64,000 bases of DNA from an uncultured Solirubrobacteraceae bacterium (GCA_964588985.1 CAZPQW010000001.1:224001-288000), one strand, 5' to 3'; positions 48,957-64,000 are shown, counted from the stretch's first letter. The notes: generated from the letters alone by a model not told the origin. Numbers and translations: made by a program.

Positions 48957-49976
48957 ATGCACGCCGAGCGACTGACCGCGCAGATGCTCGCCGGGCCGCC
49001 GGCGAGCGACCCGGTGGAGGTGACACGCAGGCTGCTCGCGGTGCAGGGGCAGGACCCGCGTGGAGCGCGGCTCGCGATCCGCGCGCGGAGCACCGGCCTC
49101 TCAGCGGCGGACGTCGATCGCGCGCTCACGGAGGACCGCTCGCTGCTGATCACGTGGGTGAACCGCGGCACTCTGCATCTGCTCGCGAGCGAGGACTACC
49201 CGTGGCTGCACGAGCTCACCGCGCCGACGCTGTTCACCGCCGCCGCGAGGCGCCTCGCGCAGGAGGGTGTCACGCCGGACGCGGCCGATCGCGCGGTGGC
49301 GGCGGTCGAGAGCTCGCTGGCCGAGGAGGGGCCGCTGAGCAGGCTGCAGCTGCGCGAGCGGATCGACGCCGTGGGTGTGCGCACGGAGGGGCAGGCGCTG
49401 GTGCACTTGCTGCTGCTCGCGACGCTGCGCGGGCTGACGGTGCGCGGGCCGATTGTGGAGGGGCAGCACGCGTATGTGCTCGTGCGCGACTGGCTAGGGG
49501 AATCCGCGCCGGTCGATCGCGAGCGCGCACTCGCGGAGCTCGCCCGCAGGTATCTCGTGGGTCACGCGCCGGCCGACGAGCGCGACCTCGCGAAGTGGGC
49601 GGGCCTGCCACTGCGCGACGCGCGCGCAGGCCTCGCCGCGATCGCGTCGCAGCTGCATCAGCGCGAGGACGGGCTCGTCGAGCTCACGGGTAGCGGTGCG
49701 CCCGCACCGCTACCGCCACCGCGCCTGCTCGGGTCGTTCGAGCCGGTGCTGCTCGGATGGCGCTCGCGCGCGGCGTTGCTGGGCGCGCACGAGCAGCGGC
49801 TCGTCACGAACAACGGCATCTTCCGCCCGTTCGCGATGGTGAACGGGCGCGCGGTCGCCGTGTGGAAGCTGTCGGCTGGGAAGGTCACCCTCGAGCCCTT
49901 CGCGCGGATCGCGGCGAAGGACGAGGCGGCGCTGCAGGCGGACGCCGAGGATGTCGTCCGCTTCCTCTCCCGTTAG
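48957..49976 (+). CDS. AlkZ/YcaQ-like winged-helix DNA glycosylase (HTH_42)
   Basis: AVQGQD (QxQ/D motif), RGTLHLL, DLAKWAGL, NNGIFRP. Confidence 0.85.
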   Translation: MHAERLTAQMLAGPPASDPVEVTRRLLAVQGQDPRGARLAIRARSTGLSAADVDRALTEDRSLLITWVNRGTLHLLASEDYPWLHELTAPTLFTAAARRLAQEGVTPDAADRAVAAVESSLAEEGPLSRLQLRERIDAVGVRTEGQALVHLLLLATLRGLTVRGPIVEGQHAYVLVRDWLGESAPVDRERALAELARRYLVGHAPADERDLAKWAGLPLRDARAGLAAIASQLHQREDGLVELTGSGAPAPLPPPRLLGSFEPVLLGWRSRAALLGAHEQRLVTNNGIFRPFAMVNGRAVAVWKLSAGKVTLEPFARIAAKDEAALQADAEDVVRFLSR

Positions 49977-50521
49977 CCGGGGATCGCCACCCTCAGGATT
50001 GGGGCGCTCGTCGGGCTCGGGCTGCCACCGAGCGGCTCGGCGGTGACGAGCACGCTGCGCACGCCGCGCAGGCTGCCGGGGATCTGCACGTCGGCGCTAC
50101 CCGCTCTCGTGACCGTGAACAGCGCGTCGGTGGGTCGTGGCGGAGCGCCCGGTCGATCGAGCCAGAGCTCGTAGACCTCGCCGAACGGCGGCTCGGACAT
50201 CCGAGATATCTCCAGCTCCGTGCTGTGTCCGACACGTCGGAGCGAAACCACGGGGGCGCTTGCGCGCGCGCCGCTGTTCGGCGTTCCGGCGGGGTTTCCG
50301 CTTCTCAACGATCCGACCAGCGCAAGTGCACCGCTGAGCGCGAGCGCCGTGCAGACGAGGCCGCCCCCGGTCTGCATCGCACGCCGTCCGCGCACCGGCT
50401 TTCCCGGATCGCCATTGCCGCCGGCCGCCGCCAGTACGCGTCGACGAAGAGAGCCTGGTGCGATCACCCGCTGCGCGGGCACCTGAGCGGTGCTGCAAGA
50501 CGATCGTGTCGAGCGAAGCAT
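49973..50521 (-). CDS. RskA-like anti-sigma paralog lacking the N-terminal zinc-binding domain
   Basis: APGSLRRRVLAAA, TM helix, VYELWL...PTDALFTV...VTAEPLGGSPSPT; aligns with 54800..55519. Confidence 0.72.
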   Translation of the reverse strand: MLRSTRSSCSTAQVPAQRVIAPGSLRRRVLAAAGGNGDPGKPVRGRRAMQTGGGLVCTALALSGALALVGSLRSGNPAGTPNSGARASAPVVSLRRVGHSTELEISRMSEPPFGEVYELWLDRPGAPPRPTDALFTVTRAGSADVQIPGSLRGVRSVLVTAEPLGGSPSPTSAPILRVAIPG

Positions 50522-50530
50522 CGAGTTCCC

Positions 50531-50556
50531 TACGCACAGCGCCCCGCGGTGGATCA
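50531..50556 (-). promoter_or_regulatory. ECF promoter TGATCC-N16-CGTA (RskA paralog)
   Basis: One of four exact copies in the module. Confidence 0.8.
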
Positions 50557-50602
50557 CTCCCGCGCTCAATCGCCGGCGACGCGCGCAATTAACACTCTCG
50601 AT

Positions 50603-50628
50603 TGATCCGTATTCGCGCTGACGGCGTA
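50603..50628 (+). promoter_or_regulatory. ECF promoter TGATCC-N16-CGTA (ferritin-like operon)
   Basis: TGATCCgtattcgcgctgacggCGTA. Confidence 0.82.
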
Positions 50629-50697
50629 GTCACACCAAGCAAGGCTGACAGGGGGAGGTTTCCTCAGCCGACCTGCCAACCCCAACATGGGAGAGTC

Positions 50698-51390
50698 ATG
50701 ACTTACACGATCAACCTGGATGAGGTCGATGTTGACGGTGCGGTACGCGAGGCGGCGGACGACGTGTCGGGTGACACGCGACTGAGCTTCCTCAAGAAGG
50801 CCGGTGTCGCGGGCGGCGCGGCGATGAGCGGCGGCGCGACTCTGTCAGTGTTCGCGCCGAGCGCGTTCGCGGCAAGTCACGGTCGCCCGCCGGCGAAATT
50901 CGGTAAAGGTGACATCGGCATACTCAACTACGCGCTCACGCTCGAGTATCTCGAGGCGGCGTTCTACAACGGCGCAACCGCGGCGAACCTGCCGCTTAGC
51001 GCCCAGGCGAGCGCGTTCCTGAAGGTGGTCACCGCCGATGAGAACGCACACGTCGCGTTCCTCAAGAAGGCGCTCGGCAAAAAAGCCGTCGCGTCGCCGA
51101 AGTTCGACTTCAAAGGCTCCAACACCAACGCCGAAACGTTCATGAAGACCGCACAGGTCTTGGAGAACACGGGCGTGCACGCCTATTCGGGGCAGGCCCT
51201 CAACATCAAGTCGGCCACGTACGTCAAGGCAGCATTGTCGATCCTTACGATCGAGGCTCGCCACGCGAGCGTGATCGGGCTGCTGAACGACCCGACGGGC
51301 AAGGAAATCGCACCCGACGGCCCGTTCGACACACCGCTCACGGCGTCGAAGGTGCTCGCCGCGGTGAAGGCCACCGGCTTCGTCGTCTGA
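50698..51390 (+). CDS. Secreted ferritin-like (Ferritin_2 / Rds1-type) protein 1
   Basis: TRLSFLKK signal, AFA cleavage site; LNYALTLEYLE, ENAH, LEN, EARH. Confidence 0.9.
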   Translation: MTYTINLDEVDVDGAVREAADDVSGDTRLSFLKKAGVAGGAAMSGGATLSVFAPSAFAASHGRPPAKFGKGDIGILNYALTLEYLEAAFYNGATAANLPLSAQASAFLKVVTADENAHVAFLKKALGKKAVASPKFDFKGSNTNAETFMKTAQVLENTGVHAYSGQALNIKSATYVKAALSILTIEARHASVIGLLNDPTGKEIAPDGPFDTPLTASKVLAAVKATGFVV

Positions 51391-51434
51391 GTGCACGTGC
51401 GATTCCCGACAAACACGACGTGGAGGTAGTGAAG

Positions 51435-52124
51435 ATGTCAAGTGCAACCAGTGAGGACACGGCTCCGCAGCCGGCTGGGATCGTCGAGCGACTCGTGCGC
51501 GACGATCTCGACCGAAAGCGGTTCCTGAAGGTGGTCGGAAGCGCAGGCGCGGCGAGCTTCGGCGCGTTCGTGATGGCGGCGTGCGGCAGTTCCAGCAAGA
51601 CCGCCTCGACGGCAGCGGCGCCGACGACGACGTCGACCGCCACGACCGGCGGTGGCGGTGACATCGCGATCCTCAACTACGCGCTCACGCTCGAGTACCT
51701 CGAGACCGCGTTCTACGAGAAGGTGATCGCGGCGGAACTGTTCAGCGGCAAGGTCGGAGGTCTGCTCGAGGACTTCGGCCGTCAGGAGGCATCGCACGTG
51801 GTCGCGCTGAAAGCGGCTGTCAGCAAGCTCGGAGGCACGCCGGCCACGAAGCCGAACGCGAAGTTCCCGATCACGAGCGCCACACAGGTGGCCGAGCTCG
51901 CCTACACCGTCGAGAATCTCGGCGCGTCGGCGTATCTCGGGCAGGCGGCGAACATCCAGAGTCCCGAGGTCCTGGCCTCGGCGCTCGCGATCCACTCCGT
52001 CGAGGCGCGCCACGCGGCGACCCTCGGCACGCTGGTCAAGAAGTCGGTCTCTCCGGACGGGGCGTTCGCCAAGCCGGCTGACATGTCAACTGTGCTGGCG
52101 GCCGTCAAGCCGTTCCTGGCCTGA
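51435..52124 (+). CDS. Ferritin-like lipoprotein 2
   Basis: GGAGG RBS; DRKRFLK signal, MAAC lipobox, Thr/Ala linker; LNYALTLEYLE, EASH, VEN, EARH. Confidence 0.9.
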   Translation: MSSATSEDTAPQPAGIVERLVRDDLDRKRFLKVVGSAGAASFGAFVMAACGSSSKTASTAAAPTTTSTATTGGGGDIAILNYALTLEYLETAFYEKVIAAELFSGKVGGLLEDFGRQEASHVVALKAAVSKLGGTPATKPNAKFPITSATQVAELAYTVENLGASAYLGQAANIQSPEVLASALAIHSVEARHAATLGTLVKKSVSPDGAFAKPADMSTVLAAVKPFLA

Positions 52125-52152
52125 TCGCTGCTGGAAAAGGAGCACGAAAACG

Positions 52153-52809
52153 ATGTCCGACAAACAACTCACACATTCGAGCCGCGCTGCGCTCGCCAAT
52201 CCCGAGCTGGCCTCGCTGGAGGTGCACGGCATGACGCGCGGGAGCTTCATCCTGCGTGGCGCGCTCGCAGCGGGAGCGTTCTACGGAACCACGGCGGTGA
52301 CGCCGTTCGTCTCACAGGCGCTCGCCGAAACCGGTGGGGGTGACGTTGACATCCTCAACTTCGCGCTCACCCTCGAGTACCTCGAGGCCGACTTCTACAC
52401 GGTCAAGGGGAGGTCGCTGAAACTCAGCGGGCAGGCGAAGGCCTACGCGCAGCAGTTCGGCGAAGAGGAGGCAGAGCACGTCACGGCGCTGATCGCCGCG
52501 ATCAAACAGCTGGGCGGCACTGCGGTGAAGAAACCGCAGTTCGTGTTTCCGGCGAGCAGCGAGAGCTCGTTTCTGGCGCTCGCCTCGGTGCTGGAGAACA
52601 CCGGAGTGGGCGCCTACAACGGCGCTGCTCCCTCGCTTCAGAGCAAGCAGGTGCTTGCGGCTGCCGGCGGGATCGTGCAGATCGAGGCTCGTCACGCGGC
52701 GGCGATCGACCTGCTGATCGGCAAGAGCCCGACGCCGACCGAAGGGTTCGACACGCCGCTCACCAAGGCGCAGGTGCTCGCCAAGGCGGGGCCGCTGATC
52801 AAGGCCTAG
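52153..52809 (+). CDS. Secreted ferritin-like protein 3
   Basis: AAGGAG RBS; TRGSFIL signal, ALA site; LNFALTLEYLE, EAEH, LEN, EARH. Confidence 0.9.
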   Translation: MSDKQLTHSSRAALANPELASLEVHGMTRGSFILRGALAAGAFYGTTAVTPFVSQALAETGGGDVDILNFALTLEYLEADFYTVKGRSLKLSGQAKAYAQQFGEEEAEHVTALIAAIKQLGGTAVKKPQFVFPASSESSFLALASVLENTGVGAYNGAAPSLQSKQVLAAAGGIVQIEARHAAAIDLLIGKSPTPTEGFDTPLTKAQVLAKAGPLIKA

Positions 52810-52836
52810 CAAGTGAAGCAGTGGAGGGGTCGCGGG

Positions 52837-52862
52837 TGATCCGCCGGCGGCCCCTCCGCGTA
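52837..52862 (+). promoter_or_regulatory. ECF promoter TGATCC-N16-CGTA (tatAC), embedded in a hairpin
   Basis: TGATCCgccggcggcccctccgCGTA. Confidence 0.8.
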
Positions 52863-52900
52863 ATACCAACCAGAGTCAATCTCAGGAGGCAACACCAATC

Positions 52901-53119
52901 ATGGGTCTCGACAATCCAATCCACATCGCATTTCTGCTGATCCTGCTGCTGCTCGTGTTCGGCGCCAAGCGCCTGCCGGAGATGGGCAAATCGCTCGGCA
53001 CCGGAATGCGCGGCTTCAAGGACGCGCTCAGCGGTGAGAGCGAGCCGGCGCCGCAGATCGCACACGAGCCGCAGGCAGTCGCTGTGGCTCCTGTTCCCGC
53101 CGAGAAGATCGCCGCCTGA
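52901..53119 (+). CDS. tatA: Twin-arginine translocase TatA
   Basis: LLVFGAKRLPEMGKSLGTGMRGFK; AGGAGG RBS. Confidence 0.95.
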   Translation: MGLDNPIHIAFLLILLLLVFGAKRLPEMGKSLGTGMRGFKDALSGESEPAPQIAHEPQAVAVAPVPAEKIAA

Positions 53120-53121
53120 TC

Positions 53122-54093
53122 ATGGCGGTTGCCGTCGGCAGGATCGGGCACGAAGATCGGGTCAGCCTGGTCGACCATCTGCAGGAGCTGCGCGGCCGTC
53201 TGATCATCTCGCTGGTCGCGGTAGCGGTGACGTTCGCGCTGTGCATGTGGCAGAACCACGCGCTGTTGAACATCATCAACGAGCCGCTCTCGCACGAGAC
53301 GCAAAAGCAGGTGAAGGCGGGCAACGGGCCGCTCGGCGCGACGTACACCGTCCAACAGAACGCGCGTGCGCTCGCCACCGAGCTGCAGGTGGTGGTGGGC
53401 GTGCTGGGGCGGCCCGGCAGCGGCGCCTCGCCCGCGGCCCGCGCAGCACTGGCGCCGGTCGCACCGCAGCTGCAGCGCCAGATCGCGAGTCTCTCGGCTC
53501 CGCCGCAGGGCAACAAGCCGGTGACGCTCGGGATCGGCGAGCCGTTCACCACGACGATCGGCATCGCGCTGATCTTCGCGTTGATCCTCGCGCTCCCCGT
53601 GATCCTGTACGAGCTGTACGGATTCCTGCTGCCGGCTTTCAGTCCCGAGCAGCGCAGCGTGACGACGCCCCTGATGCTGGCGATCCCGTTCCTGTTCGTG
53701 GCGGGTGTGCTGTTCGGGTACTTCGTGGTGCTCCCGGCGGCGGTGCGCTTCTTTCAGAACTTCAACAGCGGCCAGTTCAACGTGCTGGTGCAGGCCAACC
53801 AGTACTACCACTTCGCCGCGGTGACACTGCTGGCGATGGGACTCGTCTTCCAGGTTCCCGTCGGCATTCTCGCGGCCACTCGCGCGGGAGTCGTGACGAC
53901 GCGCCAGCTGCGCCACAACCGCCGCTATGCGATCCTCGCGTGCGGCGCGGTGGCGGCGTTCCTCCCCGGCGATGCGGTCACACTCGTCCTCGAGACGGTT
54001 CCGCTGTACCTGCTGTTCGAGCTGAGCGTTCTGATCGCCAGGTTCATCGAGCACCGCGAAGCCCGCCGGACGGCCGCAGATGCACTCCGATGA
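53122..54093 (+). CDS. tatC: Twin-arginine translocase TatC (variant)
   Basis: SLVDHLQELRGRL, EPF, FLLPAFSPEQR, LFVAGVLFGYFVVLP, PGD, PLYLLFELS. Confidence 0.93.
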   Translation: MAVAVGRIGHEDRVSLVDHLQELRGRLIISLVAVAVTFALCMWQNHALLNIINEPLSHETQKQVKAGNGPLGATYTVQQNARALATELQVVVGVLGRPGSGASPAARAALAPVAPQLQRQIASLSAPPQGNKPVTLGIGEPFTTTIGIALIFALILALPVILYELYGFLLPAFSPEQRSVTTPLMLAIPFLFVAGVLFGYFVVLPAAVRFFQNFNSGQFNVLVQANQYYHFAAVTLLAMGLVFQVPVGILAATRAGVVTTRQLRHNRRYAILACGAVAAFLPGDAVTLVLETVPLYLLFELSVLIARFIEHREARRTAADALR

Positions 54094-54147
54094 CCGCGAC
54101 CGCCGGCTCCGCTGGCATCGGTGGGAGGATCCTCGCGCGTGGATGAG

Positions 54148-54173
54148 TGATCCAAACGCGGGTATCTGCCGTA
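54148..54173 (+). promoter_or_regulatory. ECF promoter TGATCC-N16-CGTA (sigma/anti-sigma autoregulation)
   Basis: TGATCCaaacgcgggtatctgcCGTA. Confidence 0.82.
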
Positions 54174-54185
54174 ACCATGACGAGC

Positions 54186-54803
54186 ATGTTCAATCCCTTG
54201 CGTCCAGCTGCTGGTGGAGGAGATTCGGTGGAGCGGCTGCGCGTGCTCGCGGACGAGGAGCTCATGCAGCTCGTTTACAGGAGCCGAGCGGACGCGTTCG
54301 AGGTCATCTATGACCGTCATGCCGACGCCGCCTTCTCGCTCGCCCTGCGCATCTGCGGCCAGCGTGCGCTTGCCGAGGATGTCGTGCAGGAGGCGTTCCT
54401 GTCGTTGTGGCGCAGCCAGGCGCACTACGACCGCGGCCGCGGGAGCGTGCGCACCTGGCTGCTCGGCATCGTGCACAACCGCGCGATCGACGCGTTGCGC
54501 AGACGCGCAGTGCGCGAGCGCGGGATCGTCGACGAAGAGGGACTTGAGGAGCGAGTCGCCTCGCCCGAGCGCACAGACCTGGAGTTCGCGCGCCGCGAGG
54601 AGGCGCGCCAGGTCCGCGACGCGCTCGAGCAACTGCCCGGGGAGCAGAGCCGGGTGATCGAGCTCGCTTACTTCGGCGGTCTCACACACGTCCAGATCGC
54701 GTCGATGCTCGACACGCCGGTGGGAACGATCAAGGGCCGCATGCGTCTCGGTCTTTCGAAGATGCGCATCACGCTCGGCGACCCGGCGGAGGCGGCGCGA
54801 TGA
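54186..54803 (+). CDS. SigK-like ECF sigma factor
   Basis: AEDVVQEAFL, WLLGIVHNRAID, ELAYFGGLTHVQIA..GTIKGRMRLGL; start uncertain (ATG 54177/54186 or GTG 54228 with GGAGGAG). Confidence 0.92.
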   Translation: MFNPLRPAAGGGDSVERLRVLADEELMQLVYRSRADAFEVIYDRHADAAFSLALRICGQRALAEDVVQEAFLSLWRSQAHYDRGRGSVRTWLLGIVHNRAIDALRRRAVRERGIVDEEGLEERVASPERTDLEFARREEARQVRDALEQLPGEQSRVIELAYFGGLTHVQIASMLDTPVGTIKGRMRLGLSKMRITLGDPAEAAR

Positions 54804-55519
54804 GCCCCGACGAGATCGACATCCACATGGACGGCTGCGGCGTGGACGCCGCGCCATACGTGCTCGGATCGCTCACCGACCAGGAGGTCGAGACGTTCAA
54901 GGCCCACCTCGCGACGTGCGCGGTCTGCCGCGAGGAAGTGGCCGCGCTGCAGACGATCGTGTCGACGCTGCCCGCCGCAGCCCCCCAGGTGCAGGCGCCC
55001 ACGGAGCTCAAGCAGAGGGTGCTCGCCACCGTGCGACAGGAGGTCAGCCTGCACGGGGGCCCGGCCACATCAGGCGGAGCAAGGACCGGACGCAAGCCGT
55101 CACGGTCGTGGCTCGGATGGCGCCCGGCGCTCGCCGGTGTCGGCGTGGCGGCGGTCGTCGCGGTGGTTCTCGCGATTGCGCTTGCTCCGGGAGGAGGCGG
55201 CGGCGCTACGCGCACGATTCAGGCCGAAGTGCTCGCCCCGCGCGCGAGCGCGACGTTGCGGGTGAGCGACGGTCACGCCGAACTGAACATCGCCCGCATG
55301 CCGCAGACGACGCCCGGCCGCGTGTATGAGGTGTGGATTCAGCGCAGCGGACCGCCGCAGCCCACGAACGCGCTGTTCACCGTCAGCCGCGCAGGCGACG
55401 CCACCGTCGGCGTGCCCGGAGCGATCGCCGGCGTGAAGGTGGTCATGGTCACCTCCGAGCCGCGAGGCGGCAGCGCCGTCCCTACGCGCTCGCCTGTGAT
55501 CGTCGCGCACGTCAGCTGA
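54800..55519 (+). CDS. RskA-like anti-sigma factor with ZAS motif
   Basis: APYVLGSL...HLATCAVC, TM helix, VYEVW, VTSEPRGGSAVPT. Confidence 0.9.
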   Translation: MSPDEIDIHMDGCGVDAAPYVLGSLTDQEVETFKAHLATCAVCREEVAALQTIVSTLPAAAPQVQAPTELKQRVLATVRQEVSLHGGPATSGGARTGRKPSRSWLGWRPALAGVGVAAVVAVVLAIALAPGGGGGATRTIQAEVLAPRASATLRVSDGHAELNIARMPQTTPGRVYEVWIQRSGPPQPTNALFTVSRAGDATVGVPGAIAGVKVVMVTSEPRGGSAVPTRSPVIVAHVS

Positions 55520-55730
55520 CAGCGGTCACGAGCAGCTCCTCATCGCCCACGCGCACCGTGTCGCCGCGAGCGAGCTGGCGCCCGCGTCTGTCCTCGCGCT
55601 CGCCGTTGACCCACACGGGCTCGGTCGCGAGCAGCGCCTTGGCCTCGCTGCCGCTGTCGATCAGTCCGGCGAGCTTGAGCAGCTGACCGAGCCGGATCTT
55701 CTCCTCCCTGATCGGGATCTCGCGAGCCAT
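55512..55730 (-). CDS. S4-domain RNA-binding protein (YaaA/YbcJ-like)
   Basis: IRLGQLLKLAGLIDSGSEAK, VNGEREDRRGRQL. Confidence 0.9.
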   Translation of the reverse strand: MAREIPIREEKIRLGQLLKLAGLIDSGSEAKALLATEPVWVNGEREDRRGRQLARGDTVRVGDEELLVTAVS

Positions 55731-63523: not shown

Positions 63524-64000
63524 ATGTCTGAGATCGACCATCCGCAGGATGTGGGGGATAGCCTGCGGCAATCCGATGGGTCACGATTCGCCTGGCCCGA
63601 GATCGACCGGCGCTCGTTCCTGCGTCGAACCGCATTGACAGGTGTGGCCGCGGGCTCGGTGAGCACCATCCTCAGCGCATGTGGCTCGGGGGGCGCGAGT
63701 TCCACCAACGCCAGTGGCGGTGGCGGTGGCGGTGGTGCATCGGGCGTGTTCGGCTCGAGCAAGAAATACAAATTCGTGTTCGTCAACCACGTGACGACGA
63801 ACCCGTTCTTCACTCCCACGCAGTACGGGGCGGCGGACGCGTGCAAGCTGCTGGGATGTGAATACCAGTGGACGGGCTCGGAAAACAGCAACGTCAGCCA
63901 GATGGTCAACGCTCTCAACAGCGCCGTGACGAGTGGCGCCGACGGCATCGCGGTCGCGCTGATCGACCTGCACGCGTTCAACGCACCGGTCGAAGCGGCT
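63524..64000 (+). CDS. Sugar ABC transporter substrate-binding lipoprotein with canonical Tat signal (partial)
   Basis: GAGGAGG RBS; DRRSFLRR, LSAC lipobox, FVFVNHVTTNPFF, ADGIAVAL. Confidence 0.9.
   Translation, partial: MSEIDHPQDVGDSLRQSDGSRFAWPEIDRRSFLRRTALTGVAAGSVSTILSACGSGGASSTNASGGGGGGGASGVFGSSKKYKFVFVNHVTTNPFFTPTQYGAADACKLLGCEYQWTGSENSNVSQMVNALNSAVTSGADGIAVALIDLHAFNAPVEAA

Follow-up and report, generated by a model that had tools for sequence, protein, structure and literature searches.

A ferritin-linked TatAC pair without Glu103 adjoins putative single-arginine Tat substrates in a Solirubrobacteraceae bacterium

Glu103 of the receptor TatC (E103 in Escherichia coli) and the twin arginines of its signal peptides are treated as near-invariant hallmarks of twin-arginine translocation (Tat). 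Here we describe a locus, at positions 50698–54093 of a 64,000-nucleotide stretch of DNA from an uncultured Solirubrobacteraceae bacterium (GCA_964588985.1 CAZPQW010000001.1:224001-288000; the whole stretch is referred to as the window), in which three ferritin-like proteins of the Ferritin_2 family, F1, F2 and F3, carry signals that keep the first arginine (Arg1) and the phenylalanine but not the second arginine (Arg2), and in which the adjoining TatA–TatC pair, TatA2 and TatC2, has glutamine at the position of E103. The locus presents a natural, conserved state with neither half of the Arg2–E103 contact left, while the Arg1–E15 contact and the phenylalanine pocket remain. The pair is followed by genes for an extracytoplasmic function (ECF) sigma factor and its anti-sigma factor, and a shared ECF-type promoter motif at the locus is a new finding of the present analysis. 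Judging from sequence, we think it somewhat probable that this is an accessory, ECF-controlled TatAC dedicated to single-arginine Ferritin_2 clients, with a receptor that changed after the clients had lost Arg2. The locus bears on the share of the Arg2–E103 contact in signal binding, on how receptor paralogues partition clients and on a class-wide tolerance of single-arginine signals that in E. coli are lethal to export.

In the genome (3.41 Mb, 48 contigs) a profile search finds two genes for TatC, three for TatA-family proteins and no Ferritin_2 genes besides the three of the F1–F2–F3 cluster. The genes on which the argument rests are as follows.

50698-51390, + strand: F1, predicted exported Ferritin_2 protein, motif GDTRLSFLKK (Pfam E-value 4e-39)
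51420-52124, + strand: F2, Ferritin_2 protein, motif DRKRFLKV (Pfam E-value 9e-38)
52153-52809, + strand: F3, predicted exported Ferritin_2 protein, motif MTRGSFILRG, ALA-E (Pfam E-value 2e-40)
52901-53119, + strand: TatA2, TatA/E-family subunit paired with TatC2 (PF02416, E-value 6e-15)
53122-54093, + strand: TatC2, paralogous TatC of 323 residues with a single TatC domain (PF00902)
54147-54803, + strand: ECF sigma gene, SigK-like, probable start ATG 54177; Sigma70_r2, r4_2 and ECF domains
54800-55519, + strand: anti-sigma gene, zf-HC2 (PF13490) and RskA_C (PF10099) domains; start codon overlapping the stop of the sigma gene

Family assignments are secure for the clients, with Ferritin_2 (PF13668) scores of 129.9–138.4 bits against a cut-off of 24.7, and for the receptor, which scores 173.2 bits with PF00902 (cut-off 25.1) and 161 bits with TIGR00945 (cut-off 132.7).

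The ferritin-linked TatC lacks Glu103

The TatC2 loop FLLPAFSPEQRSV aligns ungapped in HMMER with FIAPALYKHERRL of E. coli TatC (chain 9dzz_A), which places Gln177 (codon 53650–53652) at the E103 position and Glu176 at that of H102. The N-terminal DHLQELR of TatC2 retains the H12 and E15 equivalents, and H19 (H12), E22 (E15), F168 (F94) and P171 (P97) are invariant in 17/17 aligned clade members, such that TatC2 departs from the TatC hallmark of glutamate at E103 and conforms to the one formed by H12, E15, F94 and P97. What gives the departure its weight is the structural context. A 2026 cryo-electron microscopy (cryo-EM) study of E. coli TatBC with substrate (PMC13323110) has Arg1 in a water-mediated hydrogen bond to E15 and stacked under F94, Arg2 in a salt bridge to E103 and packed on Y100, and the signal phenylalanine in a pocket of F94, L9, H12 and L13; in its E103A control both binding and transport are lost. 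Transport by E. coli TatC is also crippled by E103G and E103K (PMC3712464), and F94 and E103 have been called "almost completely invariant" (PMC5539426). By alignment, the partner missing from TatC2 corresponds exactly to that of Arg2, and those of Arg1 and the phenylalanine are retained. A preliminary description of the locus, made from the sequence alone, had claimed the glutamine at the E103 position, the retained H12 and E15 equivalents, a role of E103 in twin-arginine recognition and three signals with Arg1 and phenylalanine but no Arg2; all of these stand, the translations giving TRLSFLK, DRKRFLK and TRGSFIL.

On contig C13 the genome encodes a second TatC, which reads FILPALKPNERRA at this loop and is 61% identical to TatC2 over 310 residues without gaps. 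It retains the glutamate, so only the ferritin-linked paralogue has undergone the loss. The same division runs through the relatives of this bacterium. A first set of 63 TatC sequences, which covers 37 genomes of the genus and, in addition, relatives at family, order and class level, has Gln (16) or His (5) at the E103 column in 21 rows of the TatC2 clade and Glu in 41 others; the TatC of one genome, G377, has a shorter loop and cannot be placed at this column. In a second set of 40, drawn from further genomes of the genus, all 30 that are 69–83% identical to TatC2 carry Gln (25) or His (5), and all ten at 63–67% identity carry Glu. Together the sets split completely over 102 sequences, with Gln or His in 51/51 members of the TatC2 clade and Glu in 51/51 other TatCs, contrary to the possibility, raised in the preliminary description, that housekeeping TatCs of the clade might have glutamine as well.

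In a tree built with the E103 column removed, the Gln/His rows form one clade with a Shimodaira–Hasegawa-like approximate likelihood ratio test (SH-aLRT) support of 99, which also contains the TatCs linked to ferritin genes in a second genus (G189, G286) and has the housekeeping TatCs of the genus as its sister. A single clade implies one Glu-to-Gln change and one or a few Gln-to-His changes, inherited since, rather than 51 independent events. Residue sets are disjoint between the two groups at only 2 of 323 columns, positions 75 and 177, where the groups were themselves defined on column 177 and the tree is independent of it. TatC2 is not decaying, having diverged less than its housekeeping counterpart: for the same pairs among 18 genomes, TatC2 orthologues average 72% identity and housekeeping TatCs 64%, with TatC2 the higher in 145/153 pairs.

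Some features of TatC2 and its relatives stand apart from this comparison. Relative to E. coli TatC, both TatC paralogues have an insertion of ~70–100 residues in the first periplasmic loop; TatC2 residues 58–125 (~53290–53500) are unaligned to E. coli TatC, and Tyr75, within the insertion, is invariant in 21/21 TatC2 rows and variable in other TatCs. Two genomes, G131 (C2:612875, C1:3029004) and G109 (C6:673046, C2:913856), have two TatC2-type copies each, all with Gln or His at the E103 position, plus a Glu-type TatC where listed. In three others (G004:C4:556342-557294, G026:C2:554089-555015 and G034:C1:616301-616982) TatC2 is split over two or three frames or contains a TGA; an assembly frameshift is as likely as a pseudogene here, since these are few-contig assemblies that are 70–78% complete. 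A complex prediction of TatC2 (17-row alignment) with F3 signal residues 1–62 (25-row alignment), run without controls, scored 0.00 and weighs neither way.

Ferritin-like clients carry one arginine

In F1, F2 and F3 the first arginine and the phenylalanine of the Tat motif are kept and the second arginine is replaced, giving R-L, R-K and R-G, respectively. What remains is otherwise Tat-like: a T/D-R-x-x-F-L/I-K/L motif is followed by a weakly hydrophobic h-region and by AFA-A, a MAAC lipobox or ALA-E. The signal of F1, for example, has a long acidic n-region, TRLSFLKK, a weak h-region and AFA-A. In F2 and all of its orthologues a lipobox-like AACGSS (MAAC in F2) comes directly after the h-region, so F2 is probably a Tat-type lipoprotein.

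The single-arginine state extends well beyond this genome. Among 81 distinct Ferritin_2 signal regions of Thermoleophilia, taken from loci of the genus, family, order and class, the second position is K in 28, S in 20, L in 16, A in 14, E in 2, G in 1 and R, as parsed, in none; one of the 81 is ambiguous, the GDRRADLL of an F1-like protein in G430. Each paralogue has its own version. Orthologues of F1 have T-R-L in 16/18 distinct signals and T-R-A in two, those of F2 have R-K in 26/26, and those of F3 have R-S, R-A or R-G, with T28, R29 and F32 invariant in 25 of them; a fourth, more distant Ferritin_2 subfamily reads LSRSQFLRN or TTRGQFLRN. Other Actinomycetota families have twin arginines (RR) in 21/22 distinct Ferritin_2 signals, or in 15/16 once six from unpublished genomes (G192, G263, G369 and G162) are left aside, from which we conclude that the single-arginine state is derived and lineage-specific. 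This wider family is described from a phylum-level genome search; the search with F3 itself gave close relatives only among the 120 matches listed, and by source name these are Solirubrobacteraceae proteins from metagenome-assembled genomes.

Loss of Arg2 has not been accompanied by a drift towards Sec-type signals, as the h-regions have the same hydropathy: the peak over 13 residues is 1.68 ± 0.23 in signals with a single arginine (RX; n=93) against 1.66 ± 0.20 in the RR relatives (n=22). The same figures rule out hydrophobic compensation of the kind found in E. coli suppressors.

Canonical RR signals are few in a strict genome-wide motif scan: DRRSFLR and DRRTFIK at the end of the window, and DRRSFLL and TRRRFMT elsewhere. 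The first of these, near 63600, is the canonical signal that the preliminary description had noted in a sugar-binding protein, and it is real. The same strict scan, used because a looser one was too unspecific, found no single-arginine signal with F-L-K outside the ferritin proteins.

Export of a protein that folds around metal would give a reason for the use of Tat, and the family points in that direction. The nearest solved chain to F3 is 8x1k_A (E-value 7e-14), the tardigrade protein RvY_06210, a FeMP metabolite phosphatase, and the desiccation-related family to which it belongs has been described as having a dinuclear metal site and phosphatase activity (PMC11616004). Seven residues of F3—E75, E78, E106, H109, E148, E178 and H181—are invariant in 25 orthologues and are candidate metal ligands. 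F1–F3 resemble RvFeMP-1 of tardigrades and DRB0118 of Deinococcus, both Ferritin_2/desiccation-related proteins, in their match to PF13668; they differ as shorter bacterial forms with Tat-like signals, one of them with a lipobox, and phosphatase activity is putative for them.

Beyond the arginine motif, some further observations were made on these proteins. About 28 residues ahead of the F1 motif (INLxEVDVDGAVREAA...GD, 50698–50790) are strongly conserved in the family and even the class, and conserved acidic n-regions also occur in F2 (GIVERLVRDD) and F3 (PELAxxEVHG). Such conservation is unusual for signals and might reflect extra contacts with a receptor or chaperone that offset the missing arginine. 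The start codon of F2 is uncertain (GTG 51420 or ATG 51435), and its residues 23–78 give a weak, sub-threshold match to NF038009 'TatB_1' (18 bits against a cut-off of 100). A small cupredoxin-like open reading frame on contig C11 has another R-K signal, TRKRFML.

Association of TatC2 with its putative clients

TatC2 never occurs without a ferritin-like gene. Across 121 genomes of the genus, Ferritin_2 is present in 59/59 TatC2-positive and 28/62 TatC2-negative genomes, and in 27/27 and 9/24, respectively, of those at least 90% complete. The association is asymmetric, as ferritin-like genes do occur without TatC2. Presence of TatC2 was assigned by an identity rule validated on the sequences of the second set, with one Gln copy at 64% identity and three frameshifted copies added by hand, and we attach no p-value to the co-occurrence because related genomes are not independent.

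Gene order varies among 20 related loci, and TatA2, TatC2 and the sigma pair are always found together. Some loci have the order F1-F2-F3-tatA2-tatC2-sigma-antisigma; others have tatA2-sigma-antisigma, a divergent F1 and then tatC2; and in a third type the sigma and anti-sigma genes lie on the strand opposite to tatA2-tatC2. A TatA–TatC pair that lies beside its putative clients and also co-occurs with them has the make-up of a dedicated TatAC–client module.

A shared promoter-like motif

The sigma gene encodes ECF sigma domains and is neighboured by an anti-sigma gene with zf-HC2 and RskA_C domains, the composition of a SigK/RskA-type pair. The anti-sigma factor scores 109 bits with NF052375 (cut-off 100). 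For the sigma factor the best NCBIfam subfamilies are PRK12519 and the SigK model PRK09646, both under their cut-offs; with 135.6 bits against a PRK09646 cut-off of 226, it does not fall within that subfamily, and we name it only SigK-like.

Four copies of the motif TGATCC-N16-CGTA lie within 3.7 kb at the locus, against 0.02 expected in the window, and 0/100 shuffles reach four:

50531-50556, − strand: promoter-like motif facing a divergent RskA_C gene
50603-50628, + strand: promoter-like motif 70 nt upstream of the F1 start
52837-52862, + strand: promoter-like motif 38 nt upstream of tatA2
54148-54173, + strand: promoter-like motif ending 3 nt before ATG 54177 of the sigma gene

At N16 spacing there are eight matches genome-wide; the other four were rejected as members of a regulon, being intragenic in appearance or without a downstream gene. 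Exact matches recur at corresponding places in the related loci: in seven they lie ~100 nt upstream of F1 or 57–117 nt upstream of F2, in 12 they precede tatA2 by 83–123 nt, and in seven they are found where the sigma gene starts. The motif is thus conserved upstream of both translocase and client genes, which makes their co-regulation putative, and its presence at four sites suggests a single ECF regulon. Its position 3 nt from the sigma ATG suggests a leaderless, autoregulated sigma transcript. A simple scan found no sigma-70-type promoter in 50400–55700.

Order of events and competing explanations

Single-arginine Ferritin_2 signals are class-wide, and the TatC2 clade lies inside the TatC diversity of the family; the signals, then, lost Arg2 before TatC2 arose. 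They are also found in genomes in which a Pfam-level search finds a single TatC, of the Glu type, which argues against a strict need for TatC2. This is the case for ferritin clusters of four genomes of the genus, G008 (94% complete), G071 (92%), G137 (93%) and G036, and for ferritins of five from other genera or families (G345, G299, G419, G038 and G059), including one, G059, with F2- and F3-like genes beside its sole, Glu-type TatC. In all of them the single-arginine signals presumably work with a Glu-type TatC. The most likely history, as far as sequences can tell, is that the TatC2 receptor adapted, or relaxed, to clients that already had a single arginine. The preliminary description had proposed instead that receptor and signals evolved reciprocally into a dedicated channel with altered specificity. 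The nine Glu-only genomes leave the reciprocal part unsupported; a dedicated channel retains the support of a glutamate loss specific to the linked paralogue, of the identity of the lost residue as the one that meets Arg2 in E. coli and of Ferritin_2 in every TatC2-positive genome.

We infer export by Tat, a client preference of TatC2 and control by the sigma factor, and together these outline how the module might operate. An envelope or stress signal would release a SigK/RskA-kind ECF sigma factor, which would transcribe its own operon, F1–F2–F3, tatA2–tatC2 and the divergent RskA_C gene from TGATCC-N16-CGTA. The ferritin-like signals would offer a helix-capping residue, Arg1, Phe, Leu, Lys or Arg and a weak h-region, without Arg2, and TatC2 would hold Arg1 and the phenylalanine through its equivalents of E15, H12 and F94, with the carboxylate that meets Arg2 replaced by Gln or His. 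In evolutionary order, the ferritin signals would probably first have lost Arg2 in an ancestor with one Glu-type TatC; a TatC duplicate would later have been recruited to the ferritin/sigma cluster; and TatC2, then serving only single-arginine clients, would have changed E103 to a neutral polar residue that was kept under selection.

Several observations weigh against this account. On the present tree the Gln/His pattern is one or two (or a few) substitutions passed on by descent, and the nine Glu-only genomes just described have the clients without the altered receptor. G012 (L123, C7:39500-44000) has the order ferritin-tatA-sigma-antisigma and no TatC2 in the genome; its ferritin is of the distant type, TTRGQFLRN, and the adjoining tatA is TatA2-like, such that ferritin, TatA and the ECF pair may be an older core of the module. 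TatCs without Glu103 also occur elsewhere. A representative search returned Gln or His in 26 of 130 rows informative at the column, and a tree of representative TatCs needs several changes there. On Gaiellales/Thermoleophilia contigs (L172 and L173), a TatC has a PAFDPDHDR/K loop with His at the E103 column and Asp on both sides, and is the only TatC found in two genomes (G440 and G441); a further lineage, PEHHRR, lies beside sufC on short metagenome contigs. Both lineages look like sole or housekeeping TatCs, with acids nearby and without ferritin neighbours, and placing the two in context yielded no independent E103-less lineage with linked single-arginine clients. One further group shows H, I, A or T there, probably for no other reason than a shortened loop like that of G377. 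Given such housekeeping-like TatCs, absence of Glu103 in this class need not mean changed specificity. Finally, the residue before E103 is often acidic in TatC2: position 102 is Glu or Asp in 16/21 TatC2 rows and 8/41 others in the first set and in 22/30 and 0/10 in the second (scored by eye), or 38/51 and 8/51 overall, and this acid may partly replace E103.

That last point is the root of an alternative to which we assign a small but appreciable chance, in which Glu or Asp102 does the job of E103, TatC2 recognizes signals like any TatC and the locus adds stress-induced capacity rather than specificity, the ferritin signals being merely weak or atypical ones that any TatC of the class accepts. 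The displaced acids of the probable housekeeping TatCs PEHHRR and DPDHDR fit such a shift, as do RX ferritins in genomes with only a Glu-type TatC. It does not account for the 13/51 TatC2 sequences that lack an acid at both 102 and 103 (PKQQK, PRHQR, PGQRR, PPQQK, PSQQR and others) in genes that are nevertheless conserved, or for the restriction of position 103 to Gln and His, never reverting to Glu although this is one nucleotide from Gln. Position 104 has relaxed as well in TatC2 (R in 10, K in 2 and Q in 9 of 21 rows), against R in 39/41 others.

We also consider it unlikely, and slightly more so, that TatC2(Q/H103) with TatA2 forms an altered-specificity receptor that chooses single-arginine signals and discriminates against RR. 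Were it so, the ferritin-like phosphatases would have a separate export lane under ECF-inducing stress, free of competition with housekeeping Tat, and avoidance of arginine at signal position 2 would be the matching half of a code.

Somewhat less probable again is that TatC2 is a weakened-receptor subunit that functions only when it forms oligomers together with the housekeeping TatC, on which the signals would dock. TatC is an obligate oligomer (PMC5102672), the two paralogues are 61% identical, E. coli TatC is inactive or crippled when it carries E103A, E103G or E103K, and a haloarchaeal TatC paralogue, TatCt, which has lost F94 and E103 and whose sites are read as inactive, has been proposed to pair with TatCo (PMC13673990). 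TatC2, unlike TatCt, keeps the F94, H12, E15 and P97 equivalents in 17/17 sequences, has its own adjacent TatA and is more conserved than the housekeeping TatC (TatC1). Two genomes, G010 and G011, show TatC2 alone, but at 63% and 57% completeness they carry little weight.

A fully orthogonal arrangement, with TatC2 preferring R-X and rejecting RR, the housekeeping TatC rejecting R-X and the two channels insulated from each other, appears improbable. It draws its appeal from the fact that signals and receptor have lost exactly matching partners, Arg2 and E103, from the constant company of Ferritin_2 with TatC2 and from the lack of R at position 2 (0/81 signals as parsed), which hints at selection against RR. 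RX signals are, however, older than TatC2, and RX ferritins in at least nine Glu-only genomes, three of them 92–94% complete, mean that the housekeeping half of the proposed insulation fails. That the ferritin-like proteins are now Sec substrates with R-x-x-F-L-K as a fossil, and that TatA2C2 serves other clients, is very improbable: the defining twin arginine is missing and Sec tolerates a single arginine (PMC5539426), but the remnant motif is strongly conserved in each paralogue, the h-regions are as weakly hydrophobic as in the RR relatives, the family is of the dinuclear-metal kind (PMC11616004) with invariant ligand-like Glu and His, TatC2 adjoins and co-occurs with the ferritin genes, and the strict genome scan gave no other single-arginine F-L-K signal.

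Comparison with known Tat systems

In Bacillus subtilis, TatAdCd has PhoD as its client and belongs with it to the Pho regulon, and as far as we know the Tat clients of this species carry normal twin arginines, with no loss of E103 in its TatCd or TatCy. The locus shares with TatAdCd–PhoD and TatAyCy–EfeB/QcrA a second, minimal TatA–TatC pair beside its client and co-regulation in a stress regulon, putative in our case, and the B. subtilis paralogues differ in substrate compatibility (PMC13673990). It is unlike them in a receptor without E103, in clients without Arg2 and in an ECF sigma factor as the proposed regulator. The locus is best read as one of a known kind, the second, client-linked TatAC, in which the natural, conserved and matched loss of one receptor–signal contact is what differs.

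A Tat signal with one arginine replaced, that of TtrB with K-R, was reportedly described by Hinsley et al. in 2001. Isolated natural single-arginine substrates of this sort have a normal Tat system and a conservative lysine, whereas here a whole family carries non-basic L, S, A or G at position 2 and is linked to an altered receptor. The residue pair is the same as in the E103 mutants and suppressors of E. coli, where E103A, E103G and E103K block or cripple transport and where a signal with KK or a single arginine can still pass given compensation, the RR motif and the site for it being 'not a mechanistic requirement' (PMC5539426). Those cases are laboratory mutants rescued by a more hydrophobic h-region or by TatB changes; the TatC2 locus is a natural, clade-conserved state, and its h-regions are not more hydrophobic.

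The 14-transmembrane TatCt of haloarchaea is likewise a natural TatC paralogue without E103; it lacks F94 and E103 in both halves, is read as binding-dead and needs TatCo (PMC13673990). TatC2 differs from it as a protein of the six-transmembrane type with F94, H12 and E15 kept and a TatA of its own, and it does not belong to the TatCt type. The literature searched yielded no account of a bacterial TatC paralogue that lacks E103 and is linked to single-arginine clients, although supplementary tables might list such cases; the term 'ferritin' is absent from the 2026 review of Tat evolution (PMC13673990) in the text available to us. Predictors based on RR would miss the single-arginine Ferritin_2 substrate family, and a compact, ECF-controlled module of TatAC plus client could serve secretion engineering.

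Divergent gene and intergenic hairpin

Two further features flank the client genes, one upstream of F1 and one in the gap between F3 and tatA2.

49973-50569, − strand: RskA_C membrane protein (anti-sigma-K C-terminal domain), divergent from F1 (PF10099, E-value 1.2e-10)
50521, − strand: likely start (ATG) of the RskA_C membrane protein, 9 nt past the CGTA of its own promoter-like motif
52821-52860, + strand: GC-rich hairpin in the F3–tatA2 gap (−36.3 kcal/mol, z −5.6)

None of 200 shuffles was as stable as the hairpin (0/200), which encloses the −35-like TGATCC of the tatA2 motif. Acting as an attenuator, or as a terminator lacking a U tract, it may part the ferritin operon from tatA2C2.

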